Virus record (IMG/VR): IMGVR_UViG_3300026521_000636
Length of the DNA stretch: 64,000 nt
Source: an uncultured virus (IMG/VR IMGVR_UViG_3300026521_000636)
Lineage: Duplodnaviria; Heunggongvirae; Uroviricota; Caudoviricetes
Strand: one strand, 5' to 3'
In this document: positions 519 to 31,973 of the stretch, one piece after another
How positions within the stretch are numbered: the first letter of the stretch is position 1
Layout: each line of letters opens with the position of its first letter
Notes under the pieces: model-generated
Seen by the model: the letters and a program-made list of their open reading frames with translations, nothing else
The model's database searches: none
Told to the model about the DNA's origin: nothing
Translations under genes and position numbers: made by a program

Positions 519-2072
519 ATGGCTAAAACTAAATTAGTAAATGGTGTTAAACTTGATTATGTTGCCGGTTCTTTTGCCAGTTTTGCCAAAATTAATAATT
601 CTAATAAAGAACTGAAAGAAGAAAATATTAAAGATTATATAGGACTTATGAAATTTATAGAAGGTAAGCTCAAGGGTTATATAAATGTTAGCACTTTATT
701 TAATGCTTATCAAGAAGAAGGGGATGGTCGATCTATAAAAGAACATAATAATTTTGGTTATGATAAAGTTTATGCTGATTCTGGTGGATTACAAGTCCTT
801 ACAGCAGGTAAAACTATCAATGATGAAGTTAAAGAAAAAGTTTATACAGTCCAAGCTAAATATTCAGACTATGCTATGACATTTGATGAAATGCCTATAA
901 TGATAGCTAAAGACTTAGGTAAAAAATCAAAAATCGGCGATTATGGACAAGTCTTTGTTGATGAGTTAGTAGAGAAAAATGCGGAATTATCTGCAATGCA
1001 TATTCAAAAACAAATAGATATGTTTGAATCATTAAATACATCCACTAAAATTTTACCAATCATACATGGATATGACATTGATTCATATTTACGTTATGCT
1101 AAATCTATTTTTAATAACCTAGATCATATAGGACATCATATTCAAGGGATGTCTATTGCATCGTTAAGTGGTCATGCGGATAATAAAGTGGGGATAATGA
1201 AAGTATTTGACTTTGTGCCAAAGATATTAAATAGTGGTGAGATTAATCCTCAATATTTAGAACATATTCATTTACTAGGTGTTGCATCTTCACAAAGAAT
1301 AATACCTATTATTATGATGATTAAAAAAGGATTATTACCAATTAAAACACTTTCATTTGATAGCACCGCAATAACAAAAGCATACACATTTGGTAGAGCA
1401 TATCAGACCATAGAAGAATATAAAAATCCGAGGGACTTTAGTACAGAAGTAACATTAAAAAGTTATAAAAATAAAGAGTTTCCAAACATAAAACAATTAT
1501 ATCAGAGTATGTATGATACGTTTAAAGATTATGAAAATTTTATGTTTGATGATTGGGAAGATATAGCAAAACATTCACCAAATAATGGCGATAAACGGGC
1601 TTTAAAAGATCAATATTTGGAAGAAGGCTTAGAATATCAAAGAAAATACTTACAGCAAGTAAGGATAGCTAATCTATATCATCATTATACTTATGTTTCC
1701 ATGCTAGAAGGCTATATTGACGATGAACTTAGTATAACAGAATTGTTTGGTTATAATAAAACTGTTGAAACTATGATGCAATCATTTGAGAGTGTAAACA
1801 CACTTGAAGAATTATCAGAAATGTGCGAATATTTTTATAATTTTGCTAAAGTCGGTCGAACAGATTTAAGAATTAAAAAAGTAAAAACGGTTAAAGAGTT
1901 TAAAGAAAAATATGAAGAAGAAGGTATTGATGTATATGCGGAATTAGGTATCGACAAAGACGTTGAAATCCTAAGTGAAGAATTAAAAAAACCTTGGATT
2001 AAATCTTCAATAAAAAGAGCAAAAGGGGAAGATTATCCTCATGGTGAGGAACCAACCAATGCACTTTTTTAA
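519..2072 (+). CDS. TGT/DpdA-like guanine transglycosylase, paralog 1
   Basis: LFNAYQEE, YADSGGLQ, MTFDE, PIIHG, HIHLLG, SFDS match TGT-fold catalytic motifs; AAGGA RBS; QueE nearby. Confidence 0.8.
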   Translation: MAKTKLVNGVKLDYVAGSFASFAKINNSNKELKEENIKDYIGLMKFIEGKLKGYINVSTLFNAYQEEGDGRSIKEHNNFGYDKVYADSGGLQVLTAGKTINDEVKEKVYTVQAKYSDYAMTFDEMPIMIAKDLGKKSKIGDYGQVFVDELVEKNAELSAMHIQKQIDMFESLNTSTKILPIIHGYDIDSYLRYAKSIFNNLDHIGHHIQGMSIASLSGHADNKVGIMKVFDFVPKILNSGEINPQYLEHIHLLGVASSQRIIPIIMMIKKGLLPIKTLSFDSTAITKAYTFGRAYQTIEEYKNPRDFSTEVTLKSYKNKEFPNIKQLYQSMYDTFKDYENFMFDDWEDIAKHSPNNGDKRALKDQYLEEGLEYQRKYLQQVRIANLYHHYTYVSMLEGYIDDELSITELFGYNKTVETMMQSFESVNTLEELSEMCEYFYNFAKVGRTDLRIKKVKTVKEFKEKYEEEGIDVYAELGIDKDVEILSEELKKPWIKSSIKRAKGEDYPHGEEPTNALF

Positions 2073-2436
2073 TAAAATTAAATCATTTATAAAAGGATTA
2101 GAATTAACTAAATTCGATAAAATCTTCTTTATAGGATATATTAGTTTATGGATATATTATTTATTTAGTGGAATGAGTTATTTAACTGCTGGCGGTATAT
2201 TATTAATTCTTGGAGCATGGCTAGTTTTTAAAGGTGAAATTTTTGTTGCAACTTTAAACTATGTTATAGCCGATATAATGTGGGTTTTAAATGCTATTAA
2301 TATAGGTGATAATGAAGGTACTATTTTCATTATAATTGGTATGCTTTTAGGTATTGCAGCAACTTATAAAATGCAAATTGGATCTTTAGCAAAATCATTA
2401 AAAATAGAAAAAAATTGTAAAATAAAACTAAAATAA
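2059..2436 (+). CDS. small multi-pass membrane protein
   Basis: About 4 hydrophobic segments; ATG 2059 preceded by GAGGA is a likelier start than 2041. Confidence 0.65.
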   Translation: MHFFNKIKSFIKGLELTKFDKIFFIGYISLWIYYLFSGMSYLTAGGILLILGAWLVFKGEIFVATLNYVIADIMWVLNAINIGDNEGTIFIIIGMLLGIAATYKMQIGSLAKSLKIEKNCKIKLK

Positions 2437-2448
2437 AAAAGGATTAAT

Positions 2449-3213
2449 ATGATACCTATTATGGAAATGTTTGGCCCAACTATACAAGGTGAGGGTGCAA
2501 GAAGTGGTGTAATTTCATATTTTTTAAGAGTTGGTGGGTGTAATTTTACTTGTAAAGGTTTTGGTGTGGCATATACCGATCCTGATGGCAATGAAAAGTT
2601 TGGATGTGATAGTTATTATGCCGTTGACCAAAAATTTAAGAAGTCATGGGATTTTTTAAACTATAAAGAAATTGTTAATAAAATGAATATAATTCTGAAT
2701 AAAGGGGCTCATGGTATTTTTAAACCTGATATAATTATAACCGGTGGAGAACCACTAATGTATTGGAATAATGAAGACTTTCAAAACGTATTAATTTACT
2801 ATATATCAAGAGGTTATAAAATCACGATTGAAACTAATGGTAGTATTGATATTGATTTCACAAAAGATTATCAAAAAGAAATTATGTTTTCTATGTCGGT
2901 TAAATTAAAAAATAGTGGTGAAGCAGAACATAGAAGAATTAATATAAAAAATCTTACTAATATACTTGAAAATTCTAAATATAGTTATTTTAAATTTGTT
3001 ATTGGTAATGATATGAATGATGTAGAAAAAGAAATTATAGATATTTTAGACAGCATTCCATATTATACTGATGTTTTTGTAATGCCTATGGGAGAAACTA
3101 CCGATGGGATTGAAAAACACGCTTTAAAAACTGCTGAATTAGCTATTAAAAATAATTGGAAATATAGCGATAGATTACATATTAGATTATGGAATGATAA
3201 ACCGGGTGTTTAG
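2449..3213 (+). CDS. queE: 7-carboxy-7-deazaguanine synthase QueE (radical SAM)
   Basis: EMFGPTIQGEG, RVGGCNFTC...CDSYY (Cys motif with insertion, epsilonproteobacterial type), ITGGEP, IETNG, RLHIRLW. Confidence 0.93.
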   Translation: MIPIMEMFGPTIQGEGARSGVISYFLRVGGCNFTCKGFGVAYTDPDGNEKFGCDSYYAVDQKFKKSWDFLNYKEIVNKMNIILNKGAHGIFKPDIIITGGEPLMYWNNEDFQNVLIYYISRGYKITIETNGSIDIDFTKDYQKEIMFSMSVKLKNSGEAEHRRINIKNLTNILENSKYSYFKFVIGNDMNDVEKEIIDILDSIPYYTDVFVMPMGETTDGIEKHALKTAELAIKNNWKYSDRLHIRLWNDKPGV

Positions 3214-3230
3214 ATTTAAGAGGAAAATAT

Positions 3231-4580
3231 ATGAGTAAATTTAAAAATACAGAACTAATTGTCGATTATGTTCTTTCAGGATTCGGAGCTTCATTTCGAT
3301 TAGGCTCACCAAATGAAGCTTACGCTAGAGGTGTTGCAGAAGAATTATTTAGTTCTACTAAATTTTTAGAATCAGAAACTAGAGGCGATAATATTGAAAT
3401 GAGTGCATTGTTTAATGCATATACAGAAGATAGAATGGCGGAACAGTTAAATGGGTTTAATCTTAATTTAAGAGATCTATATACTGGGGGTATGTATGTT
3501 GATTCTGGAGGATTACAGGTTTTAACACAAGGCAAAACTATCGATGAAGAAATGAGAAAAAAAATATATAAAACTCAGGCTTCATATGGTGATTTTGCTA
3601 TGAGTTTTGATGTTATTCCTTCTGAATTTGTAAATGGCGAAAAAATATATTTTCCGGAGCGAGTAGCTGATGCGGGAACACAAGCTGGAAAAAATTTAAT
3701 TGAACAAATTAAAGCATTTAAAGAATACAATACCTCTTGTAAAATCATGCCAATCATTCAAGGATTAGGTGAAAGTGACATGGATTTATATGCTAATAAT
3801 ATGTTTAGCCAACTATCTAAAGATGAATTGGATTATATCACAAGTGTCGCTTTTGGTGGTGGTACAAGTGGTTTTGAATTTTTAAATAGAATGATGAATG
3901 CTCATCATTCAAAAATTTTATCACAAAAAATGAATCATGTGCATTTACTAGGGATTACAGGCTTTTCTAGACTATTACCGCCTATTATTGCAGCAATGAA
4001 TGGAATTCTTCCAGATGTTAATAGAATTTCTTTTGATAGTACAACAATATCAAAGACTTATGTATTAGGGATGGTATGGCCAGAAGTTGAGGATGTTATT
4101 TCTGGTAATGTTAAAGCTGGTGCAAGTACATCGTTAGGCAAAGTAAGAAATAAAACTGTTGAAGCTCATTATGAAAAAATGTGGAATTGGTGGAAAAAAA
4201 ATCCTAATAATATTTTTGATGGTGTTGAAGATCTTTTAGAACATTCCGTATATAACTCTAAAGGTTTTACAACTGGATACCAACAAACAGAAAATTTATC
4301 ATTAGAAGATGGAATCAAAACAATTACCCAAAAGCATGTTTTTGTATATTATAACACATATAATTTTATCAATATTTTAAAAGGATATATAAAAGGCGAG
4401 GTACCATTATCCAACTTGTTAGGTAAGAATCAAAAAGGTATTTTCTTATTTGAACAATTAGAGAGTATTACTGATGTAAACGATTATAATGAGTGGTTTA
4501 TAGATGTTAAAAAACATATAAAGATTGATGTTCCATCTGTTGGTTCAGATAAAGGACAATCAACAAATATTTTATTTTAG
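3231..4580 (+). CDS. TGT/DpdA-like guanine transglycosylase, paralog 2
   Basis: LFNAYTED, VDSGGLQ, SFD, PIIQG, HVHLLG, SFDS. Confidence 0.8.
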   Translation: MSKFKNTELIVDYVLSGFGASFRLGSPNEAYARGVAEELFSSTKFLESETRGDNIEMSALFNAYTEDRMAEQLNGFNLNLRDLYTGGMYVDSGGLQVLTQGKTIDEEMRKKIYKTQASYGDFAMSFDVIPSEFVNGEKIYFPERVADAGTQAGKNLIEQIKAFKEYNTSCKIMPIIQGLGESDMDLYANNMFSQLSKDELDYITSVAFGGGTSGFEFLNRMMNAHHSKILSQKMNHVHLLGITGFSRLLPPIIAAMNGILPDVNRISFDSTTISKTYVLGMVWPEVEDVISGNVKAGASTSLGKVRNKTVEAHYEKMWNWWKKNPNNIFDGVEDLLEHSVYNSKGFTTGYQQTENLSLEDGIKTITQKHVFVYYNTYNFINILKGYIKGEVPLSNLLGKNQKGIFLFEQLESITDVNDYNEWFIDVKKHIKIDVPSVGSDKGQSTNILF

Positions 4581-4589
4581 GTGATATTG

Positions 4590-6170
4590 ATGGCTACAAG
4601 TAAAAAACAAATAAATGGTATTACTTTAGATTATGTTTCTGGTTCATTACGACCTTTCTTAAAAATAGGTTCTGGTAGTACAGATGCTATAAAGCATGAG
4701 GGAGTTGAAGATTTTAAGAAACTACTAGATTGGTCTCAAACACATTTAAAAGGTTACTTTGTACTATCAACACTTTTTAATGCGTTTCAAGAAGAAAAAG
4801 ATGGTAAAGTATTAAAAGAAGAAAACAAACTTAATCATGACGCAATTTATGCCGATTCTGGTGGATTACAAGTCCTCACTAGAGGATTAGAAATTACAGA
4901 TGATATTAAATTGAAAGTATATGATACTCAAGCTAAATATTGTGATTTTGCCATGACATTCGATGAAATGCCTTTAAAAGTTATAGAAAATCAAGATCAA
5001 TTTGGTAAATCAATTATTGATAATAACAGGGTTGTTCATATCAAAGAAATGGTAGGTATATCTGCAAAAAATTCAGCAGCACATATTCAACAGCAAATTG
5101 ATGTATTTGAAAAACTTAAGACGAATACAAAAATATTACCTATTGTACATGGTTTTAGTGAAGAAACATATATCGAATACGCCGAAACAATTATGAAAAA
5201 CTTACATAATATTAAGGAACATATCCAAGGTATGGCTATTGCTTCATTATCAGCATCAGCGGATAATAAGGTAGGTATAATGAAAGTTTTTGATTATGTA
5301 CCAACTCTTATGAATGCTAAAGAGATAAAAGAAGAGTATAGACAACATGTCCACTTACTAGGAGTAGCTTCATATCAAAGAATAATTCCAGTTATGATGA
5401 TGGCTAAAAAGGGTATTTTTGATACCGTTAAAAGAATTTCATTTGATAGTACTGCACTTACAAAATCATATACATTTGGGCGTGTATATGCTAGTGTTGA
5501 AGAAATGAAAAATCCTAAAGATTATGAACCTCTTTTATCATTAAATCATTGGAAAGATCCTCATTCAAAAAATATTAGACAATTTTATAATAACGTACAC
5601 AATTTACTCAAAGACTACCCCGATTATATTTTTGAAGATGTTGAAGATTTGATGAACCATTCACAAAATAATGGTGAGAAATTAAAAGTTAGTGAACAAT
5701 TTAAAAAATATGGAACTGAATATGAAAGAAAATATCTGGCTCAAGTGAGATATAATAGCATTTATAATATGATTCAGTATTTAAGTGTTATTGAAGCTTA
5801 TTTAGAAGATGAACTGGCTGTAGCTGATATATTCTCATATAATGGGACAGTAAGATTTATGTTTGAAACCTTTGAGCATAATGCACATACAAAAGAAGAT
5901 TTTAAAGAGATGTGTAACTATTTTTATACAACGGCTACAACAGGAAGAACGAACCTCAATTATATAATAATGGACACTTTAGAAGAATTTGAAAAAAGTG
6001 AATATGGAAATAATCCCGATGTAAAATCGGACCCATTAGCCGAATTAGGAGTAGGGGAAGTACCAAAACATGAAAAAGGGTATGTTCGACCAGATCTTTT
6101 AGCTCGACGAGCTAAAAGAGCACCTAGAGATTTTAAAGAAGATGGAAATCCATCAGATTCTCTTTTTTAA
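4590..6170 (+). CDS. TGT/DpdA-like guanine transglycosylase, paralog 3 (closest to paralog 1)
   Basis: LFNAFQEE, YADSGGLQ, MTFDE, PIVHG, ADNKVGIMKVFD shared with paralog 1, HLLG, SFDS; ATG 4590 or GTG 4581 start. Confidence 0.8.
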   Translation: MATSKKQINGITLDYVSGSLRPFLKIGSGSTDAIKHEGVEDFKKLLDWSQTHLKGYFVLSTLFNAFQEEKDGKVLKEENKLNHDAIYADSGGLQVLTRGLEITDDIKLKVYDTQAKYCDFAMTFDEMPLKVIENQDQFGKSIIDNNRVVHIKEMVGISAKNSAAHIQQQIDVFEKLKTNTKILPIVHGFSEETYIEYAETIMKNLHNIKEHIQGMAIASLSASADNKVGIMKVFDYVPTLMNAKEIKEEYRQHVHLLGVASYQRIIPVMMMAKKGIFDTVKRISFDSTALTKSYTFGRVYASVEEMKNPKDYEPLLSLNHWKDPHSKNIRQFYNNVHNLLKDYPDYIFEDVEDLMNHSQNNGEKLKVSEQFKKYGTEYERKYLAQVRYNSIYNMIQYLSVIEAYLEDELAVADIFSYNGTVRFMFETFEHNAHTKEDFKEMCNYFYTTATTGRTNLNYIIMDTLEEFEKSEYGNNPDVKSDPLAELGVGEVPKHEKGYVRPDLLARRAKRAPRDFKEDGNPSDSLF

Positions 6171-6210
6171 AAATGTAAAATTAATATAAAATATTAAAAA
6201 AAGGATATAT

Positions 6211-7245
6211 ATGAAAATAGCTATTATTGGTGCTGGATGGTATGGATGTCATATAGCTTCAATTTTAAAATCGTACGCTGTTGATATAACTATTTTTGAA
6301 CAAGAAGATGATATTTTTAAACATGCATCATCAAAAAATCAAAATAGACTTCATTTGGGTTTTCATTATCCTAGATCTTCAATAACACGACTGCAGTCAA
6401 AACAGGGTTTTAAAAATTTTAAAAAAGAGTATGATTTTTGTTGTAGTCCTATAAGTAAAAATTTCTATGCAGTAGATAATCAACGATCTTTAATAGACTT
6501 TGAAACATTTAAAATTATTATGGAACACGATCTGGATTTTAAAATAAAAGATAATACGGACAGACTACAAAACTTATCTGGATTAATTAATACTAAGGAA
6601 GAAGTTATTAATTTTGATATTGCCATAGAACACTTTAAAGAATTATTGTCAGGCGATTTAAGATTAAACTGTAAAATTGAAAATGCAGATATTCAAAATT
6701 GTGATGATTATGTCCAAATTAAAGATGAAAATTTTGATTATTTAATCAACTGTACTTGGGCTACTTTTAGAAATAATTTCAATATTGACGCTTTTTATGA
6801 ATCATGTATTGTTTTACTTTATAAAACATCACATCACGAAAATGATTTCGCTATAACTATTATGGATGGTGAATTTGTATCTCTATTTCCATATACTGAA
6901 AACGGGGTGTACACACTCACATCTGTAAAAAATACAGTTCTAAAAAGAGATAAAAGTTATAAAAAAATTATAGATTTTCAAAATAATTTATCGGATGATT
7001 TTATACAAGAAATTATTAAAAAAATGGAAGCTGAAATGATATATTATTATCCAGATTTTTTAATAGATTTTGAATTTAAAGACTATTTTCTTACAACAAA
7101 AAGTAAACTTAATGTACAAACTGATTCTCGTGAAGTGGTAGTAAAACATAATAATCGAGAGATTTTTGTATTTTCTGGAAAAATAGATACTATCTTTGAA
7201 GCTGAAAAAGAAATTTTAAAAATACTAGGATTAAAAAATGAATAA
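6211..7245 (+). CDS. FAD-dependent oxidoreductase (DAO-like)
   Basis: N-terminal IAIIGAGWYG Rossmann motif, ASSKNQNRLHLGFHYPRS, C-terminal SGKI. Confidence 0.85.
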   Translation: MKIAIIGAGWYGCHIASILKSYAVDITIFEQEDDIFKHASSKNQNRLHLGFHYPRSSITRLQSKQGFKNFKKEYDFCCSPISKNFYAVDNQRSLIDFETFKIIMEHDLDFKIKDNTDRLQNLSGLINTKEEVINFDIAIEHFKELLSGDLRLNCKIENADIQNCDDYVQIKDENFDYLINCTWATFRNNFNIDAFYESCIVLLYKTSHHENDFAITIMDGEFVSLFPYTENGVYTLTSVKNTVLKRDKSYKKIIDFQNNLSDDFIQEIIKKMEAEMIYYYPDFLIDFEFKDYFLTTKSKLNVQTDSREVVVKHNNREIFVFSGKIDTIFEAEKEILKILGLKNE

Positions 7246-7906
7246 TAAAATATGTATCATTGGCGGTACCTCCAATATTTCAAAATCATTTATAAAAATG
7301 GTTGAAAATAATTTTGATATTATAACGGTTGGTAAAAGCTCTAATAATGATATTGAATTTGATATTAATAATGGAAATTTTAATAATATTAATAAAATAC
7401 CTTTAAATTGTTCGTATTATTTAATTGCTGCAGGCATATTATACCCAAAAAAGATTATCGAACAAACAAATAATGAGATTTTAAATAGTATATCTTTAAA
7501 TCTTTTATTTCCGACTTATTTAATTGAACAGATATTAGATATTAATGAAGATGTAAGAATTGTAGTGGTTGGTTCTGAATCGGGTAAAAAAGGTTCATAT
7601 GACACAACTTACTTTTTAAGTAAAGCAGCTTTAAAATCTTATATACAAGAAAAACATATTAAATCTAAAAACCAATCACTAAATATGATTGCTCCATCGG
7701 TTATACTGGATACAAAAATGACACAAGATCGGGACGATTTAGAAGAAGTATTAGAAAGAGCAAAAGATTTACCAAAAGAAAGATATTTAATGAGTGAAGA
7801 AGTCGCTAAACTTATTTATTATTTATTTTTTGAGGATTCAGGGTATATTAATAACGAAGTTATTAATATGAATGGTGGTAAATTTGCAAGAATGAATTAC
7901 AGATAA
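7238..7906 (+). CDS. short-chain dehydrogenase/reductase (SDR)
   Basis: IIGGTSNI nucleotide-binding loop, catalytic S and YxxxK (YFLSK), C-terminal INMNGG. Confidence 0.85.
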   Translation: MNNKICIIGGTSNISKSFIKMVENNFDIITVGKSSNNDIEFDINNGNFNNINKIPLNCSYYLIAAGILYPKKIIEQTNNEILNSISLNLLFPTYLIEQILDINEDVRIVVVGSESGKKGSYDTTYFLSKAALKSYIQEKHIKSKNQSLNMIAPSVILDTKMTQDRDDLEEVLERAKDLPKERYLMSEEVAKLIYYLFFEDSGYINNEVINMNGGKFARMNYR

Positions 7907-7916
7907 GGAAAGGGAT

Positions 7917-9356
7917 ATGAAACAATATAAAAAACGAATAGCATTTATTATATCATCACAACATTTTATAATACATGGTGGTATAGGAACATTTGCACGA
8001 GCTTTCGTAGATATGTGCAATGATTTAGATTATAAAGTCGACTATATAATGGATAAAGCTCCGGCTAATAAAGATTTAGAAGAATACATACTTAAAAATA
8101 ATGGAAATATTTTATACCCTCACAAAGACTTGTCTTATAAAGGTCATAATGCAAGGTTTGTTTTCTCAGATAGTATGAATTTAGAAAAAACTATAAACTT
8201 TAGGGATTCGTTTTTACAATCATTTAAGAATGCAATTTATGATGTTATCATCATAAATTCTAATGATGCTATATTACCAATATTAATAACCGGGATTCAG
8301 AGTATTGCACCGACAATAGTATATTCTCATAGTGGTGAACTAGTTTTTGTAAATGAAAAACATGATCCAGTCTTTAAAAAGTCTGTAGTCGAAATTTATA
8401 AACAATTAATGTGTTTGGATGATATTATAATCGGAACTCATAGTGACCATAATAAAGCTATCATAGAAAATAACTTTCCAGATATAAATGTCAAAACATT
8501 ACCTTTAAGGATAGCTGATAAGGGGTTATTAGACTCCATAGATCCGAATATTGAAAAAAATGGCGTGTTATTTGTAGGTCGTTATGAACCAAGAAAAAAT
8601 CCCGACACATTTTTAAAAGGTGTTTCTGAAGCAGGACTAAAAATCTTAATAATGACAAATGATAACGGGGCTAAAAAATTTGAAGCTAAACTTTTAGCTT
8701 TAGGTTATGAAAAATTTAATGAAAGAAAAAATGATCCACTGCAAAATGATGGAAAAGTATATGAAATAAAATTTGGTATATTTGGAAAAGAAAAAGAAGC
8801 TTTCATGAATAAAGCTAGGCTTTCTTTCCAACCTGCTATTTTAGAATCATATGCATATAGTACAGTTGAAGCATTACATTGTTGTAGAACCGTAGTACTT
8901 GATGAATATTCGTGGGGTAAAAATTTCAAAGGGTTAGCATATTTTACAAATAAAAAGACAATGAGTGAAGATTTAAAACGTTGGCATGATGAAGATTATG
9001 ATATGGAACAGCAATTAGAAAAAATGCGAAAAATTTATAATGATGGTGCGCAGTATTGGACAGATATATTTGAAGAATATTCCGCTTTAAATTTAAACCC
9101 TAAAAAAGTAACAAAAACTAAGTTATACAAATTATTGGATGAACAGAAGGATTTTGTATCCATTTCATATATACTTGAAACGCTACTAAATAGAGATTTA
9201 AATTGGATAGCTATTGATGATGCTGAAATTTTTTATAAAATTATTAATGAATTGGATATTGTTCATACTGATAAAGAAACTTTTATAGCATTAAAAAATA
9301 AAAAATTCAAATTTAATATATCGGACGAAGTTGATGGTTCCGAATTATTATTTTAA
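7917..9356 (+). CDS. GT-B (GT4-like) glycosyltransferase
   Basis: HGGIGTF, LFVGRYEPRKNP, ESYAYSTVEAL (E-x7-E). Confidence 0.85.
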   Translation: MKQYKKRIAFIISSQHFIIHGGIGTFARAFVDMCNDLDYKVDYIMDKAPANKDLEEYILKNNGNILYPHKDLSYKGHNARFVFSDSMNLEKTINFRDSFLQSFKNAIYDVIIINSNDAILPILITGIQSIAPTIVYSHSGELVFVNEKHDPVFKKSVVEIYKQLMCLDDIIIGTHSDHNKAIIENNFPDINVKTLPLRIADKGLLDSIDPNIEKNGVLFVGRYEPRKNPDTFLKGVSEAGLKILIMTNDNGAKKFEAKLLALGYEKFNERKNDPLQNDGKVYEIKFGIFGKEKEAFMNKARLSFQPAILESYAYSTVEALHCCRTVVLDEYSWGKNFKGLAYFTNKKTMSEDLKRWHDEDYDMEQQLEKMRKIYNDGAQYWTDIFEEYSALNLNPKKVTKTKLYKLLDEQKDFVSISYILETLLNRDLNWIAIDDAEIFYKIINELDIVHTDKETFIALKNKKFKFNISDEVDGSELLF

Positions 9357-10205: not shown

Positions 10206-12686
10206 ATGAACGCAGATTTAGAAAAAACACATAGTACCTTACCAGCACACCCTGTTGGGCAGGCTATAACTACGAAAACCAAAGTAATAGAATTTGCTGA
10301 AAAAATCGTAAATTCTCAACTAGGAGAAATTACTGGCGCATTCATAGATACCGATACAATGCACCTTTGTTTAAAATATTCAAGTAGTAAAACTGCTCTC
10401 ACAGCAAAAATGAATAATAAAAAAGAAGATATTTTAACCCCTATTTTCTTAAAAGCAAAAGGTAAAAATATTCAAGATTATACCTTTAATGTAATTCTAA
10501 ACTCATCCGATAGTTCAACAAAAATACGTACAGATGCAGCATTAATTGAACATGGAATATTATATGCTATTGAATCAAAATTTTCTGAATCCATTTCAGA
10601 AAAAAAGATTATTGATCTATTGAATGAACTTCGTAATAAACACTTGAAAAGTTTTTATACAGCTTTAAAAGATGACAAACTATATCTTAATTTAGTAAAA
10701 CAAAATTACATGCCTGTAACAGATATTATAATGACTGGCAAAATAATAGAAAACCCAATATTACTTGAAGCTTATGCTGATGAAGCATATATAAGTGAGA
10801 TGGATATTCTGGATATTATAGAAAAATTTGGTCACTATATGCGCTCATACAAAATGAAACTCAAAGAGGGTGTTAATATCAATGATGATATATTTGATGA
10901 TAAATCAAAAATGGTAAAGCCACAATTTGTAGAATTTGAATATATATCAGACCACCTATATAATTTATTTGATGTAGAAATTGCTGCTAGAATCGATACA
11001 TCTTCTACCGAACCAATAAGTGCTATTACTCATATGAAATTAGAAAAAGCATTTGAAATGATTGGACAAAATGGTAATGTTGAAGATGGTCTAGGTAATA
11101 ATAGAGCGAAGAAAAAGTGGAATGATCCGGCTAGAATTGGTTTATTTTATGATCAACTAAACACTTATATAAATGAAATGGAATCAGGGTCATTTAATCA
11201 TCATGCCCGTCACGATGCGTACGTAACAGCGACAAAACAACGTACTCTACTCTATAGACATTTTGAAGAACATATAACTAAAGATTTTGAGATAGATAAA
11301 GTTAGTGGTAAGTTGAAAGAAGTAAAAGTTAAATCAATTACTCCTTCAAACACTAAACTTATAATTAGTTCAGGGAATATAACTGTTGCTAATTCGCAGC
11401 ATTTAGTTGAAAATAGATTACTCATAAAACAGTTGGCTTATTATTTTATCGAAACATCAATATATGGCAAATTTCATTATAATCCATGGGAACGTGATGA
11501 ATTAATTAAAGAAGTTTATGATTGCAATAAAGGTTTGATTGATAAAGTTTTAGATAGATTTAAAGAACATTTTTTATCAAAAAAATTCAAAGATACTGAT
11601 AAATCAAAAATAAAAGAGATGATTGAAAGATGGGGCGATGATAGAATCCCTGTAAGATTTGTAACTGAAGAGGGTGATATAATCAACCAATTTATAACTT
11701 CATCAAATACAGGTTTATCGGCTACAAAAAACCAAGAAATACTAGCTCCATATAAAACAGAGCAAAATACTATTAGAAGTATTATAGCCGATTATCAGAT
11801 TGATAATAAAAATATTTCATTAGCATTAACACATAGTGATATTAGAAAAATTTCTGCTAAGTTAAATTATAATGAAAATATAATAACATTAGTTAATCTT
11901 ATATCTGATAATCCTCTGTATTGGGATGATGAACAGAAAAAAACAAAAATCGATTCTATGAACACAGTTGATTGTACTTATACAGTATCACTCACTAAAA
12001 AAATGGCTAAATCCTTTGCCCAATTATTTATTAAGGGTGATGATAAACTTCAAGATAACTTGTTAAAGTATGAAAAACTTATAGAGACAGAATTGGCTAA
12101 AGACGACTACGATGAATTGATACTAAAATCATTTGAAAATAGCGTCGCCGATTTAAAAAGCCAATTAGAAGGACATTACAGTCATCATAGACTATTCCAT
12201 TTGAAAAAATATGCCCACCTACAATTAGAAGCTATTATTAAGGTCATTAATGTTTTTGAAAAAGTATATAAAATGGACCAATATAATGAACGTATGAGAG
12301 ATTTGACAATTGCAAGCAACGATAATACTGTGTTAGTTTCAGAACACGACTATACTAAAGGTCGCTTGGTCGGTTTATTCTTTAATGCTTTAAAAATATT
12401 AAAAACTAAAAAAGCCAATTATTGGCATGATGAAGATGAAATGATTCGATATTTTAAATTGTTTATAGAAACCCTAGAAGATGTCCGATTATTATATAGA
12501 AATATTAATGGCGACATTGTAACGGTAACAAAATTATTCAAAGAGACCATATATCCTAAGAATATAGATACCAACAATAGTAATATTGTATTATCTACCT
12601 TTAAAGTATCAGTAACCGATCTTACAGATAATATTATAAAAGTGTTTAAATCGAAAATAATAAATACTAATCAAAATAATGTATAA
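10206..12686 (+). CDS. large hypothetical protein, possibly AIPR/ParB-like central region
   Basis: 826-aa ORF with AGGAGG RBS; NITVANSQH...IPVRFV...ITSSNT loosely resembles AIPR motifs (weak). Confidence 0.6.
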   Translation: MNADLEKTHSTLPAHPVGQAITTKTKVIEFAEKIVNSQLGEITGAFIDTDTMHLCLKYSSSKTALTAKMNNKKEDILTPIFLKAKGKNIQDYTFNVILNSSDSSTKIRTDAALIEHGILYAIESKFSESISEKKIIDLLNELRNKHLKSFYTALKDDKLYLNLVKQNYMPVTDIIMTGKIIENPILLEAYADEAYISEMDILDIIEKFGHYMRSYKMKLKEGVNINDDIFDDKSKMVKPQFVEFEYISDHLYNLFDVEIAARIDTSSTEPISAITHMKLEKAFEMIGQNGNVEDGLGNNRAKKKWNDPARIGLFYDQLNTYINEMESGSFNHHARHDAYVTATKQRTLLYRHFEEHITKDFEIDKVSGKLKEVKVKSITPSNTKLIISSGNITVANSQHLVENRLLIKQLAYYFIETSIYGKFHYNPWERDELIKEVYDCNKGLIDKVLDRFKEHFLSKKFKDTDKSKIKEMIERWGDDRIPVRFVTEEGDIINQFITSSNTGLSATKNQEILAPYKTEQNTIRSIIADYQIDNKNISLALTHSDIRKISAKLNYNENIITLVNLISDNPLYWDDEQKKTKIDSMNTVDCTYTVSLTKKMAKSFAQLFIKGDDKLQDNLLKYEKLIETELAKDDYDELILKSFENSVADLKSQLEGHYSHHRLFHLKKYAHLQLEAIIKVINVFEKVYKMDQYNERMRDLTIASNDNTVLVSEHDYTKGRLVGLFFNALKILKTKKANYWHDEDEMIRYFKLFIETLEDVRLLYRNINGDIVTVTKLFKETIYPKNIDTNNSNIVLSTFKVSVTDLTDNIIKVFKSKIINTNQNNV

Positions 12687-14454: not shown

Positions 14455-16001
14455 ATGACACAAAATAATATTTCAAATATTAAATCTACTATCGAGAATG
14501 ATCCAAAAGGATTGAAATTAGAGCTTGTAATTTCGGGCATACCTTAGGCTACTTTAAATTAAGAAGTCAGCACGATGATTTATTTAGAATTACAGCATTA
14601 TCTTTACGAAAATGCCTAGACTATATTGAAGAAAAATTACCAGGCAATGTTTTATTACAGGGTCTATTCAATGCATACACAGAGGAAGTCATGGCTCGTA
14701 GAGCAAGTGAAGAATCAATTAATGTACCGTTCAAATCTATCTTCCCACATGGATTGCATGCTGATTCAGGTGGTTTACAAATGGTTACTTTAGGTAAGGG
14801 TACTGTTGAAAAAGAAGATAGACTTAAAATCTATGAAACACAAAGTAAGTATGCTGATTATGCTATGAGCTTTGATGAAATTCCTGCAGTATTTATTGAT
14901 GATGTTAAATACTATATGCAAAGTCTAATTGAAGAAAAAGGTATTGAGTCAGGTAATAATCTCAGGGAACAATTTGATTATTTTGCTACAACCGATTCAA
15001 CTTGTAGAATTGTACCCATCGTACAAGGTTGGGGGATAAAAGACACAAATACATTCGCTAAAGGATTATTTGCACAATTTACTGATGAAGAAAAAAGCAA
15101 AATGGATATTTTTGCTTCGGGTTTCCAAAGTACATCTGTTTATGCATCGGCGAAAAGGGCATTCGACTTATACAGAGTTGAGTCAATACCTGAAAATGCT
15201 AAACAACATCTGCACCTTTTAGGGGTAACAGGTTTTAAAAGGTTAATACCTATTTTGATACTAATCAAAAATAATATGACTGAGGGTTTAAAATCTCTAT
15301 CATTTGATTCGGTTACACTTTCTATGAGTTATGTTATGGGTGGCACTGTTCCTTCTGTTGATGATTTTAAAAATGGTAAGGGCAAAATAAAATTAGGTAA
15401 AAAACGTAATAAAGATGTGGATGCTTATTGGCAAGAAATTTTTGATTTTTGGAAAGACGATCCAGAATTCCCTTTTGATGATTTAAATGATATGATGGAA
15501 CATAGCTATTATAATTCAAATGGATTAACTAGTGGTTACCAACAATATGAGCATTTTTTACAAGCTGATGAAGATGGCAATTTTACTAAAAAAAATAAAA
15601 AAATAGCTGATTTTCATTTTGCTAAAGTATTGAAGCAAGAGCAGTATTATATTTTATATCAAGTTCATAATTATGTACAAATATTAGAATCCTTTTTAGA
15701 AGATGATATTAAACTTGAGCATATTTTTAAAGGTAAAGATCTAGTATTATTCCAAGCTTTAGAAAAAGTTACAACTGATGATGATTTTAATGATTGGTAT
15801 GAATACCTTAAAAAATCTACAGGTTTTTCAATTTTAACTATGAATTCTGAAGCAAAATCATCAGAGGAAACAACTAATTTATTATTTGATGACTCAAATA
15901 ACGAACCTATAAAAGAAAGAAAAAAACAACCATCTAGAGTAGCTAAAAAACCGACTAAAGTAGAAGAAGATAATATTGATGCTATGAATGATTTATTTTA
16001 A
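14455..16001 (+). CDS. TGT/DpdA-like transglycosylase, paralog 4, interrupted by a frameshift near 14545
   Basis: ATG 14455 (RBS AAGGA, promoter 14397) reads MTQN...LELVISGIP then TAG 14545-14547. The -1 frame continues GYFKL...GLFNAYTEE into the 14691 ORF with HADSGGLQ, SFDE, PIVQG, HLLG, SFDS. Confidence 0.75.
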
Positions 16002-18706: not shown

Positions 18707-19456
18707 ATGTTAGCAAAAGTTACAAAAAAAGTAAAAAATTTCATTCAAAATCTAGAAGTTGTTTCTCCTAAAGACTACAACAAATACTTTAATGACATTG
18801 CATTTGATATGGGTATAGAAACAAGCGAATTTGATTGTGATATGTCTAATGCTATTGATAAACATCGTGACACTTTAGAAGAAAATACATCTCTTGCTAT
18901 AAATGCTATTAATACTCGTGATGTAAAAGCTCTAGAACTTGTAAACGATAATATGAGTAAATTAAAAAAAGAAATTATAGAACTTAAAGAATTAGTATAT
19001 AAAGACGAATTAACTCAAGTATATAATAGAAAATATATTACTGATAATATATTATCTGGAGATTATTTTAAAATTAATGGTCTTATGGTTATTCTTGACA
19101 TGAATAATCTTAAAAAAATCAATGATACCATTGGACATGTAGCTGGAGATAAGGCTATAATCTATCTTTCTAAAGAACTAAAGAATTTAACAGAAAATAC
19201 TATTAGATTTGGAGGAGATGAATTTCTATTATTTTTTGATGACATTGATTTAGAAGATTGCTTCTTAAAACTACATAAATTACGTGAAAAAATAAGTACC
19301 AAAATATTTCGCTTTAAAGGTGTTGAATTTAATATTAGTTTTGCTTTCGCTGCTATAGCTATCGACCCATCAAAAAAATTCAAAGAAACTCTTGAAATTG
19401 TAGATAATGAAATGTATAAAGATAAAGAAAGAGTTAAAAATATGTTAAACAAATAA
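18707..19456 (+). CDS. diguanylate cyclase (coiled coil + GGDEF)
   Basis: DELTQVYNR, DMNNLKKINDTIGHVAGD, RFGGDEF. Confidence 0.92.
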   Translation: MLAKVTKKVKNFIQNLEVVSPKDYNKYFNDIAFDMGIETSEFDCDMSNAIDKHRDTLEENTSLAINAINTRDVKALELVNDNMSKLKKEIIELKELVYKDELTQVYNRKYITDNILSGDYFKINGLMVILDMNNLKKINDTIGHVAGDKAIIYLSKELKNLTENTIRFGGDEFLLFFDDIDLEDCFLKLHKLREKISTKIFRFKGVEFNISFAFAAIAIDPSKKFKETLEIVDNEMYKDKERVKNMLNK

Positions 19457-23320: not shown

Positions 23321-23323
23321 GTT

Positions 23324-23777: not shown

Positions 23778-23865
23778 TGTAGAATCTTTTATTGAAGAAT
23801 GTAGGACTTTAAAAATAAACTATGTAGGCATTATGAATTATTTAAGGACAGAGCATAATGGATAA
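23740..23865 (+). CDS. small hypothetical protein (41 aa, not in ORF track)
   Basis: AAGGA RBS, MKKLKEIEFK..., fills the gap before NADAR. Confidence 0.4.
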   Translation: MKKLKEIEFKTTNVESFIEECRTLKINYVGIMNYLRTEHNG

Positions 23866-24373
23866 ATTAACAGAACAATATCGACAAACAGATTCTCATT
23901 TTTATTTTTGGAATACTATATATTCGCAATGGTACACATCAAAAAATCAAATCAATGATAATGGTGTAAGCTATCCAAATGCTGAGAAATATATGATGGT
24001 TGCAAAAGCTAAACATTTCGATGATGATAAAATATTAGAAAAAATGTTAAAAACTGATAACCCAAAGGAAGTTAAAGCACTTGGTAGAAGGGTTAAAAAT
24101 TTTAACGATGAAAGTTGGGATAAAGTTAAGGAAGATATTGTTACCAAAGCAAATTACCTTAAATTTAAACAAAACTCAGATTTATTAAAGATACTCATGG
24201 AACATAAAGATTTAATTCTTGTAGAGGCTTCACCAGTTGATAAAATTTGGGGTATTGGTTTACATTTTTCCGATAATAAAGTACTGGATGAATCAAAATG
24301 GCGTGGAAAAAATCTACTAGGAAAATGTATAATGAAAGCTAGAGATTTAATATTAAAAGAAGAGGAAAAATAA
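23858..24373 (+). CDS. NADAR family protein (YbiA-like)
   Basis: SQWY, AEKYMM..KA..F.D, KALGRRVKNF, KFKQN, LVEASPVDKIWGIG, GKNLLG. Confidence 0.92.
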   Translation: MDKLTEQYRQTDSHFYFWNTIYSQWYTSKNQINDNGVSYPNAEKYMMVAKAKHFDDDKILEKMLKTDNPKEVKALGRRVKNFNDESWDKVKEDIVTKANYLKFKQNSDLLKILMEHKDLILVEASPVDKIWGIGLHFSDNKVLDESKWRGKNLLGKCIMKARDLILKEEEK

Positions 24374-24376
24374 AAT

Positions 24377-26002: not shown

Positions 26003-26056
26003 TAATTAATTTTTATTTAATAATCCTTTTTGTATAATAATATAAAAGGATTATTA

Positions 26057-27319: not shown

Positions 27320-27321
27320 TA

Positions 27322-27843
27322 ATGAAATTAAAAGACTTAATCAATGAAGAAAAAGAAACTAAAGGGACTTATGCAGGTGTATTACTTAGTCAAGACGATG
27401 AAGATAAAATCATCTCAATAGTGAAAGAAATGGGAATACCTAATCCTATTCCTCGAAAAGATATTCATATTACACTTTTGTATAGTAGAAAGGTACTACC
27501 AGATTATAAACCAAATGAAAATTTAGATATTTGGGCATATCCGACTGAATTTCATATTTTTAATGGTGGTAATGGTAAAGATATTCTTGTATTAAAGATT
27601 GACTCTCCTGATTTAGTTAAAAGACATAAAGAGTTGATGAAAGAACATGAAGCTACTTATGATTTCCCAGAATATATCCCACATATCACATTAAGTTATG
27701 ATTTAGAAGATTATTTAAATACAGAAGATGATAGACTTAAAGCCATTAATGAAAAATTTAAAAGTTTATTACCTAAAGAGTTTCATTTAGTTAGAGAATA
27801 CGTAGAAGATTTAAATTTAGATTGGGAGAATAGTAATGACTGA
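27322..27843 (+). CDS. acb1: anti-CBASS 2H phosphoesterase Acb1 (T4 gp57B-like)
   Basis: Two HxT motifs in T4 57B-like context: PNPIPRKDIHITLLYSR, LVL..DS, ATYDFPEYIPHITLSY, REY.E.L.LDW. Confidence 0.85.
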   Translation: MKLKDLINEEKETKGTYAGVLLSQDDEDKIISIVKEMGIPNPIPRKDIHITLLYSRKVLPDYKPNENLDIWAYPTEFHIFNGGNGKDILVLKIDSPDLVKRHKELMKEHEATYDFPEYIPHITLSYDLEDYLNTEDDRLKAINEKFKSLLPKEFHLVREYVEDLNLDWENSND

Positions 27844-28783: not shown

Positions 28784-29126
28784 ATTGAATACTAATCTTC
28801 TTGAGAAAAAAGCTGATGAATTAATAGACAATGCAGGAATTGTTTGTTTATGCGGTAGTACAAAATTTAAAAAAGAATTTGAAATAGCTACTTCAATATT
28901 ATCCAAAAAAGGCTTTATTGTATTAAGTGTTGCACAATTTTCCCATCATGATAATTTACCTTTAACCGAATTTGAAAAAATAACTTTTAATAAGTTACAT
29001 TTTAAAAAAATAGAATTAGCAGATTTAGTTTATATTGTCAATCCAAATAATTATATTGGTGAATCTACAAAGGATGAAATTGAATATGCTAAATCTCTAA
29101 ATAAAAAAATACAATATATGTTTTGA
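28758..29126 (+). CDS. hypothetical protein, NDT/DUF4406-like
   Basis: CLCGSTKF...H..KI..AD...N...YIGEST..EIEYA; start uncertain. Confidence 0.6.
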   Translation: MTQNGWKRKLNTNLLEKKADELIDNAGIVCLCGSTKFKKEFEIATSILSKKGFIVLSVAQFSHHDNLPLTEFEKITFNKLHFKKIELADLVYIVNPNNYIGESTKDEIEYAKSLNKKIQYMF

Positions 29127-29157
29127 ATTTGTATAATATAATAAAAAAAGGAAGAAT

Positions 29158-29316
29158 ATGGATCATAAAATTCGAGAATTATTAGAAAAAATCCAACATT
29201 TTACAAATAAAGCCGTAGGTTTACTACAAGAAGAAAAATATGATGAAGCCGCTTTTTTCTTTAATCTAAGTTCTAGTTTAAATTCTGAAATCGCATTACT
29301 AATAAAGAGAGATTAA
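29158..29316 (+). CDS. small hypothetical protein (52 aa, not in ORF track)
   Basis: TGTATAAT promoter 29130, AAGGAAG RBS, MDHKIRELLEK... Confidence 0.55.
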   Translation: MDHKIRELLEKIQHFTNKAVGLLQEEKYDEAAFFFNLSSSLNSEIALLIKRD

Positions 29317-29318
29317 TA

Positions 29319-30650
29319 GTGATTACATTAGAATATGTTGCTAGTGCTTGGATGAATTTTAATTTCCTAAATTCAAAAGACCCGGAATTATTAAAATGGG
29401 CATCTGAAAATTATACTGCAAATTTAAAATATATGATGAGTAAATTAGAAAATAATATTTTTGAATTTTCCGGACTTTATAATGCTTTTTATGAACCCGA
29501 ACAATATGAGCGTATTTTAGAATGTGGAATAAGTGATCCGAGTTGCGGACATAAACATGTTTATGCTGATAGTGGTGGTCTTCAGATGATGAAGCAAAAT
29601 CTAAATATTACTGAAGAGATTAAAAAAAATATAATGCAAAATCAAGCAAAATACTCAGATTTTGCATTTATTTTTGATGAAATACCATCTTATAATGTTG
29701 ATGATACACGAGTATTTGTGAATGAATGGGTAAAACCTTACGGTGAAAGAACAGGACAAAATTTAAATACATTATTAAAAGTTATAAAAGATAATAATTC
29801 TCATACAAAAGCAATACCTATTGTTCAAGGTAGAGGAAGAGAGCAAATAACTGAATTTACAAACGCAATGTTATCTCAAATATCAAAGAACGATTTAAAA
29901 TATATTGAAGCTTTTGCTATGGGTAATGCCCATGGAAATGGTTTTGGTTTATTGCAATCTACTAGTACTTTTTTATCTATGAAAAATATCGATAATAAAT
30001 TTAAAAAACACATTCACTTACTTGGAGTAACAGGTTTTGATAGGATGATTCCAATTCTTCAATTAGTAAAAAATGGTTTATTTGAGCATACCGAAAAGAT
30101 TTCATTTGATAGCAGTTATCATGCTAAAACCTATGCTTTTGGCAATCTTCAAAAAAGCGTTGAATGGTGTATTAATGGTATGCAAGATGATAAATTAGGT
30201 TTAAAAAGAAATAAAATGACAGAAGACTTTTTTAAAGAATTAGATGATTTTTGGAAAAATTCTCCCACGTATAATATTGATGAATTTGATGACTATTTTA
30301 AATATTCATCATGGGATAAAGATAAAATCAACACACCAAATAGACAATTAGCTGAGCGAGACGTAGAAGCATATAAAAAAAATGTAAATATTATTCAAAA
30401 TTATATTTTCTTAAATATGTACAAATATTTTGAAGTTTTAAATAAATTTATGACTGATGAACTTACTATGGAGCAGATTCTCCATAGTAAAAAAACTCTA
30501 AAGATATTCCAACCATTACAAAATGTATATTCACTTGATGAATTATATGATTGGGAAAATTATGCCGCATCAAATTATAAAGTTCAAGTTAGTAGCTCTA
30601 TCGATAAAGCACCTTTTGACATTGATAAAGTAACTGATGTTTTATTTTAA
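29319..30650 (+). CDS. TGT/DpdA-like guanine transglycosylase, paralog 5
   Basis: LYNAFYE, YADSGGLQ, FDE, PIVQG, HIHLLG, SFDS. Confidence 0.8.
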   Translation: MITLEYVASAWMNFNFLNSKDPELLKWASENYTANLKYMMSKLENNIFEFSGLYNAFYEPEQYERILECGISDPSCGHKHVYADSGGLQMMKQNLNITEEIKKNIMQNQAKYSDFAFIFDEIPSYNVDDTRVFVNEWVKPYGERTGQNLNTLLKVIKDNNSHTKAIPIVQGRGREQITEFTNAMLSQISKNDLKYIEAFAMGNAHGNGFGLLQSTSTFLSMKNIDNKFKKHIHLLGVTGFDRMIPILQLVKNGLFEHTEKISFDSSYHAKTYAFGNLQKSVEWCINGMQDDKLGLKRNKMTEDFFKELDDFWKNSPTYNIDEFDDYFKYSSWDKDKINTPNRQLAERDVEAYKKNVNIIQNYIFLNMYKYFEVLNKFMTDELTMEQILHSKKTLKIFQPLQNVYSLDELYDWENYAASNYKVQVSSSIDKAPFDIDKVTDVLF

Positions 30651-30662
30651 TAGGAAACATTT

Positions 30663-31973
30663 ATGACAACAAATTTAGAATTCGTTTTTTCAGCTTTTCC
30701 TCATTATATGAAAATGTGTAGGCAACAGGGTGAGATGTATAAAGCAACAGCCCAGTCAGTCCAAACATCAATAGCATATATGAGATCAAAACTCAAAGAT
30801 AATGTATCTGTAAGTGCTTTATTTAATGCATATACAGAGGAAGATTGTGCTAGAAATGCATCTAATAGATTTACAGGTATGAAATCCATTATTGGTAGTA
30901 ACCTCTATGCTGATAGTGGTGGATTACAAATGATGACTTTAGGACATACAGTTGATGAAGCACAAAGAAAAAAAATTTATGAAACCCAAATAAAATATGC
31001 GACACATGCTATGAGTTTTGATGAAATTCCCGGTATTTTCATTGATAAAAAAAAATATTATAAACCAGATACCGTATATAACTGTGGCGTTATTTCTGGG
31101 GGAAATTTACTTGAACAGTATAATTTTTTCAAAGAGGCTAGATCAAATACAAAAATTGTGCCAATTATTCAGGGATGGGGTTATAAAGATACAGATCTAT
31201 TTACTCAAGGTTTGATGACAAATTGTAAAAATATTTGGAACGAATTTGATATGTTAGCTGCTGGATTTCAAAGTTCATCAATTTGGGGAACGGCTCAAAG
31301 AGCAATAGATATATATACAAATCCATTACTCAAAAAACAATTTTTAAATCATTATCACATGCTTGGTATGAGTGGTTATAAAAGAATAATCCCTATGATA
31401 ATGATACTTAAAAGCGGATTAATAAAAGATATGAAGACACTTTCATTTGATAGTTCCTCAATATCTATGACATATGTAATGGGCAACGTTATAAAATCGA
31501 CTGATGATTTAATCAATAATAGAAAATATGAATTGGGGAAAGAAAGAACTAAAGAAGTTGAGGATTACTATAAAGAGCTGTATGAATTCTGGAAAGATGC
31601 ACCCAATTGCAATTTTAAAGATTGGGAAGACTTATTAGAAAATTCTCAATGGAATAGTAGGGGTGTTAAGAGTGCAAAAGCTCGTCATGATGAAACCAAT
31701 GATATTAATGAATCATTAAAATATCTGACACAAGAACAATATTTTATTTTCTATAATGTATATAAGTATGCTATGGTTCTTGAAGATTTTTTAGAGGGTA
31801 ATATAGAATTATCAGATATATTTAAAGGTAAGGATTTAGAATTATTCAGTCAATTAGAAAAAATAGATAATATAGATGATTTCTATGAATGGCAAGATTA
31901 TGTAAATAAAACACAAAATATAAAATTAGAAATATTTGAGAAAGATAATGATTTTTCAAATATTTTATTTTAA
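30663..31973 (+). CDS. TGT/DpdA-like guanine transglycosylase, paralog 6 (closest to paralog 4)
   Basis: LFNAYTEE, YADSGGLQ, SFDE, PIIQGWG, AGFQS, HMLG, SFDS. Confidence 0.8.
   Translation: MTTNLEFVFSAFPHYMKMCRQQGEMYKATAQSVQTSIAYMRSKLKDNVSVSALFNAYTEEDCARNASNRFTGMKSIIGSNLYADSGGLQMMTLGHTVDEAQRKKIYETQIKYATHAMSFDEIPGIFIDKKKYYKPDTVYNCGVISGGNLLEQYNFFKEARSNTKIVPIIQGWGYKDTDLFTQGLMTNCKNIWNEFDMLAAGFQSSSIWGTAQRAIDIYTNPLLKKQFLNHYHMLGMSGYKRIIPMIMILKSGLIKDMKTLSFDSSSISMTYVMGNVIKSTDDLINNRKYELGKERTKEVEDYYKELYEFWKDAPNCNFKDWEDLLENSQWNSRGVKSAKARHDETNDINESLKYLTQEQYFIFYNVYKYAMVLEDFLEGNIELSDIFKGKDLELFSQLEKIDNIDDFYEWQDYVNKTQNIKLEIFEKDNDFSNILF

Follow-up and report, generated by a model that had tools for sequence, protein, structure and literature searches.

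In bacteriophage T4, the C-terminal tails, hydrophobic as well as acidic, of the polymerase gp43, of gp55 and of gp33 bind the sliding clamp gp45 and are freely interchangeable; the segment preceding the gp55 epitope has diverged and tolerates alteration, and in distant T4 relatives clamp binding is not obvious from sequence (PMC2988020, accessible part of the text). The modification of phage DNA with 7-deazaguanines has been described as a post-replication event carried out by DpdA, at levels that vary greatly from one subfamily to another. The DpdA2 enzyme of Vibrio phage nt-1 puts dPreQ0 into DNA in E. coli, and ArcS of the same phage (VPFG_00169) gives dG+ (PMC10516641, likewise in its accessible part). 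Here we analyze a stretch of 64,000 nucleotides from an uncultured virus (IMG/VR IMGVR_UViG_3300026521_000636; hereafter the window), which corresponds to bases 97350–161349 of one 224,467-bp virus contig with 28% G+C. It encodes six putative DpdA2-type DNA transglycosylases and one glycosyltransferase, all of which end in a five-residue tail close to [ST][DN]xLF. We predict from sequence comparisons, with a probability of roughly 0.6, that this tail is a local variant of the T4-type clamp-docking peptide and ties DNA hypermodification to replication.

The set of 84 non-overlapping open reading frames (ORFs; minimum 50 amino acids) in the window contains exactly seven with an LF C-terminus. 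The initial annotation had assigned LF ends to these seven named genes and to no other protein of the window; each was found where it had been placed, and the census returned no further LF-ending ORF. Contig-wide, such ends occur in nine of 368 ORFs, so two of the 361 other than the window carriers have one, namely an rIIA-like protein and one whose tail is of another kind (NIFLF). All seven window tails are the very last five residues of their protein. The L-F pair together with D, N or E is kept in every one of them, and only MNDLF has a hydrophobic residue, M, at the fourth position ahead of the final F.

The carriers are all encoded on the + strand. Paralog 1 (519..2072; 517 aa) is a long form with 82 residues past the last conserved alignment column and ends in TNALF (2055–2069; match to phrog_10773 at E 1.2e-51). 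It is followed by the short-form paralog 2 (3231..4580; 449 aa; TNILF at 4563–4577; E 6.8e-51), for which tblastn gave matches in Vibrio phage nt-1, Stenotrophomonas phage Moby and Pseudomonas phage pf16, and by paralog 3 (4581..6170; 529 aa; SDSLF at 6153–6167; E 4.4e-61), another long form, in which the 85 residues past the last conserved column include a basic stretch. The main open frame of paralog 4 covers 14691..16001 (436 aa from the first ATG, the frame being open further upstream) and ends in MNDLF (15984–15998; E 2.5e-39). Paralogs 5 (29319..30650; 443 aa; TDVLF at 30633–30647; E 8e-52) and 6 (30663..31973; 436 aa; SNILF at 31956–31970; E 1.6e-36) complete the family. The seventh carrier, a glycosyltransferase in the initial annotation and now assigned to the GT1 family (PF00534, 27.6 bits against a cut-off of 26.4), lies at 7917..9356 (479 aa; SELLF at 9339–9353) and shows no homology to the transglycosylases.

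That the six proteins are true paralogs, as first annotated, is borne out by the phrog_10773 match common to all (E 1.6e-36 to 4.4e-61), by the invariance of the motifs DSGGLQ, HxHLLG and SFDS in an alignment of the six, and by the transglycosylase fold of the one paralog that was modelled. Identity to the first paralog is 26–47%. Pfam gave no match to any of the six even at E 10, and a sequence profile built from them found neither a tRNA-guanine transglycosylase (TGT) nor any other relative in the PDB. An AlphaFold2 model of paralog 5, based on a 65-sequence alignment, has a mean predicted local distance difference test score (pLDDT) of 94.7 and a predicted template modelling (TM) score of 0.92. 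When it was compared with the PDB by Foldseek, the top ten hits were all TGTs (best E 2.5e-8, probability 1.00, TM 0.47/0.53), and the bacterial DNA preQ0 insertase DpdA (7ui4) followed at rank 11. Residues D84-S85-G86-G87-L88-Q89 and D264 are invariant across the 65 aligned sequences; we take the D-S-G-G motif and the second invariant Asp to be the TGT catalytic residues.

By tblastn, the family is present in 71 phage records, mostly of T4-like phages: Vibrio phages of the nt-1/KVP40 type, Stenotrophomonas phages Moby and IME-SM1, Pseudomonas phage pf16 and one Synechococcus phage. The nt-1 match is the gene between FolE and QueC (31% identity, 59% query coverage, E 1e-23), and the nt-1 and Moby homologs sit amid genes for FolE, QueC, QueD and QueE. 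Because of the modelled fold, the phrog match and the homology to the nt-1 protein, whose DpdA2 activity on DNA is recorded in the accessible part of PMC10516641, the six paralogs are predicted to be DpdA2-type DNA transglycosylases. DNA rather than tRNA had been proposed as their substrate; the homology fits this proposal and supports it indirectly, through the reported insertion of dPreQ0 into DNA by nt-1 DpdA2.

The fourth paralog departs from its annotation. Its start had been placed at 14455, and three-frame translation shows that the piece 14455..14547 lies in another frame: the first 30 codons from the ATG at 14455 are out of frame with 14691–16001, the two being divided by a shift of one base near 14540, within the context T-T-T-C-G-G-G. 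Orthologs of about 500 aa elsewhere are uninterrupted. The break may reflect a pseudogene, a programmed shift or an assembly error. This paralog also contains an internal motif copy, TNLLF (15873..15887), which aligns with the C-termini of the short paralogs (alignment columns 501–557) and is followed by a 37-residue basic-acidic extension ending in the second copy. The three long paralogs share this layout: a partly degenerate first copy where the short forms end, then a basic stretch, then the terminal copy.

The number of residues past the last conserved column is 26, 27, 31, 67, 82 and 85 in the six paralogs. A variable low-complexity linker had been described in front of each tail; in the three short paralogs this stretch is short (26–31 residues), and in the three long ones it measures 67–85 residues. 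Tail conservation was assessed in a comparison anchored at the C-terminus, using 37 distinct sequences drawn from the six paralogs, their 28 closest database relatives and four paralogs from a related contig. Position −1 is F and position −2 is L in 37/37, position −4 is D or N in 28, and position −5 is T, S, M or A in 33. Entropy over the residues from −6 to −20 is mostly near 3–3.5 bits (range 2.6–3.5). As the L-F pair is invariant while the residues upstream of it vary, the tail appears to be under a constraint of its own, and from these alignments we judge that the pattern exceeds chance or plain shared descent. In the model of paralog 5, which is one of the short forms, low scores are confined to the last ~10 residues; pLDDT is below 50 over residues 438–443, the last six, and the last two blocks score 62 and 43.

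A profile search of 1.84 billion representatives yielded 462 family members at E ≤ 1e-3, and C-termini were compared for 176 representatives, comprising 150 among the matches listed and those of another search. The LF end is found in 28/28 of the closest relatives vs 18/148 of the others. In most of the remaining members the end is [ST]-L-[ED]-x-[LF]-F plus zero to two residues, so that the window tails grade into the gp43-type motif. The T4 precedent for clamp docking by gp43, gp55 and gp33, invoked in the initial annotation, is sound: in the T4 record gp43 ends in SLDFLFG and gp55 in SLDFLYEAND, with one and five residues beyond the motif, respectively, and gp33 is covered by the review (PMC2988020, in its accessible part). 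The two T4 glucosyltransferases in that record lack a gp43-type end. A strict pattern, [ST][LIMV][DENQSGTA]x[FLMIW][FWYL] inside the last 10 residues, is present in 68/176 representatives; it falls to 2/176 once the last 30 residues are trimmed, and the background is 1/361 and 1/377 among the other ORFs of two large contigs. A looser pattern gives 120/176 representatives vs 103/738 in the background.

The tails of DpdA2-type proteins were then compared with those of the family-B DNA polymerase (PolB) of the same genome, over the last nine residues. The comparison covered 13 genomes or contigs, namely three isolates and ten IMG/VR contigs with both genes and a complete PolB; three further contigs were excluded because the PolB frame was cut or split. 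At least four identities were shared in 10/13 same-genome pairs, a level reached by 0.7% of comparisons with random C-termini. The mean number of identities was 4.31 for same-genome pairs; shuffled pairings gave 3.79 (p 0.023) and random C-termini 1.55. The two contigs with a PolB ending in F-F are also the two, out of the ten from IMG/VR, in which DpdA2 ends in F-F or F-W. The isolates pf16 and nt-1 have a PolB ending in F-F and a DpdA tail that does not. The DpdA and gp43 tails of Stenotrophomonas phage Moby are almost the same. A gp45 match was found in all three of the T4-like contigs that were searched for a clamp.

The tail recurs on DNA-acting enzymes unrelated to the transglycosylases. 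Among homologs of the window glycosyltransferase, 15/16 place the L-F pair among their last seven residues, five of these ending in LESLF plus one residue. The ArcS protein of nt-1 (VPFG_00169, L012:2504-3184) ends in SLANFF and the gp43 of this phage in TLESFFG. In nt-1, the gp43-like tail is on ArcS and the end of DpdA2 is degenerate, so that the choice of tethered enzyme may vary from phage to phage, provided that the tail is a clamp peptide. A 306-kb IMG/VR contig, which is syntenic with the contig studied here over about 100 kb and also has the modification cluster, encodes four DpdA paralogs, all LF-ending. Its RNase HII (PF01351, E 7e-23) ends in TTDILF and is the only replication or repair enzyme of this lineage seen with the tail, and one of its two DUF5591 (ArcS-core) proteins ends in PSNSLF. 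Altogether, the tail was found on four folds unrelated to one another: GT1, ArcS core, RNase HII and PolB.

Within the window, none of the six other genes of the modification cluster carries the tail (QueE-like, FAD oxidoreductase, SDR, radical SAM, an 826-aa protein of unknown type and a second glycosyltransferase), nor do FolE, QueC, the QueD-like protein or QueE of nt-1 and Moby. Since these cluster and precursor genes lack it and the polymer-acting carriers have it, the tail marks out enzymes whose expected substrate is DNA itself. On the most economical reading, the canonical form resides on DpdA2, ArcS and the glycosyltransferase family in T4-like phages, and the [ST][DN]xLF form is derived in the giant-phage lineage.

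The proposal of a T4-type docking peptide is supported, indirectly but substantially, by the canonical tails of distant relatives, by the match to PolB and by the unrelated carriers; several findings weigh against it. Neither this contig nor its 306-kb relative, both of them partial, yielded a clamp of the gp45, PCNA or beta type or a clamp loader. The searches comprised direct family searches for the gp45 C and N domains and the beta-clamp N and C domains, Pfam on 83 + 42 + 72 proteins of this contig (197) and 139 + 48 of the relative (187), PHROGs on 12 + 125 + 116 + 65 proteins (318), and a local hidden Markov model built from four gp45 sequences. As both records are partial, we regard this as absence of evidence. 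Furthermore, no xxLF end was seen on the contig's NAD ligase, topoisomerase II, sigma-like protein, DnaB-like and other helicases, gp32-like single-strand-binding protein or PolB fragments, so that the genome-wide check suggested with the initial annotation, whether polymerase, sigma factor and ligase share the end, came out negative here. Six of the seven window tails have S or T at the fourth position ahead of the final F, where T4 and most family members have a hydrophobic residue, as the canonical motif does. In pf16 and nt-1 the DpdA and PolB tails have only two identities each, and same-genome pairs exceed shuffled ones modestly (p about 0.02), most tails being similar from one genome to the next. 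Finally, a PolB-like end was present in only one of five gp55-like proteins of T4-like contigs, a weak result that agrees with the remark on distant T4 relatives in the accessible part of PMC2988020.

Several candidates for replication components were tried and rejected. Two AAA-type proteins considered as clamp loaders matched only Msp1-like ATPases in the PDB, or nothing useful. A 228-aa protein with strong conservation, adjoining the single-strand-binding protein gene, considered as a clamp, had no Atlas match, and its 69 homologs bear no clamp name, one source calling it a peptidase. A 433-aa protein beside a PolB fragment, considered as a part of the polymerase, had no PDB match. PolB itself occurs in both related contigs only as separate fragments tens of kilobases apart; the fragments and their neighbours lie at 11479–12120 and 64573–65424 of this contig and at L123:13-1689, L123:10123-10827 and L124:13267-14166 of the relative. 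Complex prediction was also run for a T4-like contig, with its gp45-like clamp in three copies and the C-terminal 45 residues of its DpdA2-type protein; the score of one control was close to that of the complex.

The tail is very probably a docking peptide, of whatever kind, that these enzymes share. On the sequence evidence its receptor is probably the phage sliding clamp, and two other partners were weighed. The tail could dock on the host beta clamp (DnaN) as a degenerate form of the pentapeptide QL[SD]LF, which is typically C-terminal. All seven tails end in L-F at the extreme C-terminus, positions 4–5 of this consensus, and two read S-L-F or D-L-F as it does (PMC9690074, accessible part), but Q at position 1 and L at position 2 are each found in 0/7. 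The failure to find a phage clamp in the family and profile searches and the two Rep3-type, plasmid-like initiators encoded by the contig would suit docking on a host ring, as would weak Pol III alpha-like fragments in the 306-kb relative (PF07733 at E 5.5e-5, below its cut-off, and PF17657 at E 5.8e-8). These Pol III alpha matches are fragmentary, however, and a beta-clamp gene is absent from both partial records searched; the tails, moreover, grade into an [ST]L[ED]xLF form that matches the PolB of gp45-encoding phages. We consider docking on the host clamp decidedly unlikely. A phage hub other than a clamp, such as a single-strand-binding protein, a helicase or a scaffold of the modification complex, is another candidate receptor: what the evidence shows is a peptide shared by several enzymes, and no clamp was found on the contig. 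A second C-terminal module of ~35 residues on at least eight otherwise dissimilar proteins (see below) also suggests that C-terminal tags have several uses. Yet the T4-like polymerase bears the same peptide, which in T4 binds gp45 (PMC2988020, accessible part), so that a hub of this kind would require a second partner for the polymerase tail, and we judge it unlikely.

The tail might also have no docking role and be an inherited structural or oligomerisation element or a signal for turnover by proteases. Six of the seven carriers are paralogs, and shared descent therefore explains part of the pattern; ClpP is encoded on the related contig and SmpB on this one. Against a role of this kind, the tail is invariant when the adjoining 15–20 residues are not. 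A structural role or a degradation signal is unlikely since the tail spans unrelated folds (glycosyltransferase, ArcS core, RNase HII and PolB) and is unstructured in the model of paralog 5, and we regard explanations of this kind as highly improbable.

Returning to clamp docking, we infer that the clamp is the receptor, that this phage possesses one, and that docking raises or directs modification. A flexible segment, 10 to about 80 residues long, would join the tail to enzymes acting on polymer DNA. The six DpdA2-type transglycosylases would swap guanine in DNA for a 7-deazaguanine base, with the glycosyltransferase working beside them, and clamps at phage forks, or left on newly made DNA, would carry these modifiers along the duplex. 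Several modifiers could share one multi-site ring. Modification would then trail replication closely and be confined to phage DNA. In a wider form, which we put forward tentatively and at somewhat less than even odds, T4-like phages and their giant relatives would place the entire hypermodification toolkit (DpdA2, ArcS core and the glycosyltransferase family) on the clamp via the peptide of the polymerase, and 7-deazaguanine insertion would be co-replicative and not a matter of free post-replicative scanning. The six specialised transglycosylases and the glycosyltransferase of this phage would act as a tool-belt writing a composite, phage-only pattern, and the tail would predict, from sequence alone, which members of a modification cluster act on DNA and which on free precursors.

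The first ~100 kb of the contig are syntenic with the last ~56 kb of the 306-kb contig, and together the two imply a genome of more than 400 kb. No recognisable capsid, portal, terminase or tail genes were detected on this contig with PHROGs, and the relative has T4-type gp23, gp20, gp15, baseplate, sheath and prohead protease genes. Stop-codon recoding, tested as a reason for the absent structural genes, left no sign. The completeness estimate of 85% for both contigs looks too high.

The second C-terminal module ends in [YF]-[LI]-P-x-x-[VIL]-K/Q-[ND]-[LIM]-F-[VIL]-F and is carried by proteins of 114–534 aa, encoded at 61515–62069 (−) of the window, at 6918–7442 (−), 87128–88732 (+), 197838–198305 (−), 206338–207081 (−), 10238–10996 (−) and 217292–217636 (+) of the contig, and at many places in the 306-kb relative (e.g. 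L117:2717-8591). BLAST similarity between these proteins is limited to the last 20–45 residues in most pairs. They have no Pfam or PHROG annotation beyond chance-level Pfam matches below cut-off (Cellulase; Ank_2 on a member from the 306-kb contig). The final F-x-F recalls clamp peptides.

Other features of the contig were noted in passing. In the window, a PIN-PhoH gene (45661–47088, −) and a 98-aa repeat of the PhoH C-terminus (44577–44873, −) flank a GIY-YIG-type homing endonuclease gene (44931–45668, +), and the near-identical PhoH C-termini look like the footprint of an endonuclease insertion with target duplication. Intein-like (Hint) segments interrupt a helicase gene and a DnaB-like helicase gene (window 47705–49114, −, and 51781–53202, +); inteins are also present in the RecA-like, ribonucleotide reductase and portal genes of the 306-kb relative. 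Counter-defence genes (NADAR and the anti-CBASS Acb1), GGDEF and GGDEF-EAL proteins, and host-like genes for GroEL with GroES, DnaJ, GrpE, EF-Tu, aspartyl-tRNA synthetase and SmpB were seen as well; the counter-defence and host-like group lies at 23858–24373, 27322–27843, 18707–19456 and 54502–56679 of the window and at 42531–43682, 94364–96214 and 163031–163480 of the contig. The actin-like ParM/Alp7A protein is 81% identical between the two contigs, and two Rep3-type initiators are encoded.

Clamp-binding C-terminal peptides and the tethering of a DNA methyltransferase to PCNA are textbook knowledge (see PMC9690074, accessible part). A full-text literature search, with most subscription journals outside its reach, found no published link of DpdA or 7-deazaguanine DNA modification to a clamp, and the accessible part of PMC10516641 makes no mention of a C-terminal tail or a clamp in connection with the DpdA2 and ArcS of nt-1. 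DNA transglycosylases, ArcS and the glycosyltransferases of phage hypermodification thus appear to be undescribed as clamp clients in the literature searched. If the clamp reading is correct, the tail on these enzymes offers a concrete and testable answer to how DpdA finds phage DNA, namely delivery by the replication clamp. It would also provide an annotation rule for large modification clusters, by which an enzyme with the tail acts on DNA. Heterologous assays of phage DpdA performed without the cognate clamp may then underestimate its activity.

The nearest described modification system is that of nt-1, in which a protein homologous to the six paralogs is encoded between FolE and QueC. It differs from the present locus in having one such protein vs six, and the cluster here adds oxidoreductase, radical-SAM and glycosyltransferase genes. 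As docking motifs, the window tails resemble the bacterial pentapeptide in their C-terminal L-F and differ from it in the positions discussed above and in that no beta clamp was found. The eukaryotic Dnmt1–PCNA pair resembles the proposed arrangement in function, as a DNA-marking enzyme with a clamp motif marks newly replicated DNA (PMC9690074, accessible part). It differs in its motif, the PIP box Qxx[IL]xxFF, whose Q and paired aromatics occur in none of the seven window tails, in its clamp, in transferring a methyl group instead of exchanging a base, and in belonging to another domain of life. A further likeness is to the gp43/gp55/gp33 epitope of T4, with the consensus [ST]-L-D/E-x-L/F-F/Y: both are C-terminal, hydrophobic plus acidic, and placed after a variable linker, and the epitope recurs with hardly a letter changed on distant members of the transglycosylase family, in agreement with the PolB tails encoded on the same contigs. 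The window tails differ from it in having S or T in place of the hydrophobic residue in 6/7, in ending at the final F and in coming from a contig on which no gp45 gene was found, and their carriers are DNA-modifying enzymes, not a polymerase or transcription factors. Delivery of these enzymes by the clamp would parallel both the Dnmt1–PCNA pair and the coupling of late transcription to replication in T4.

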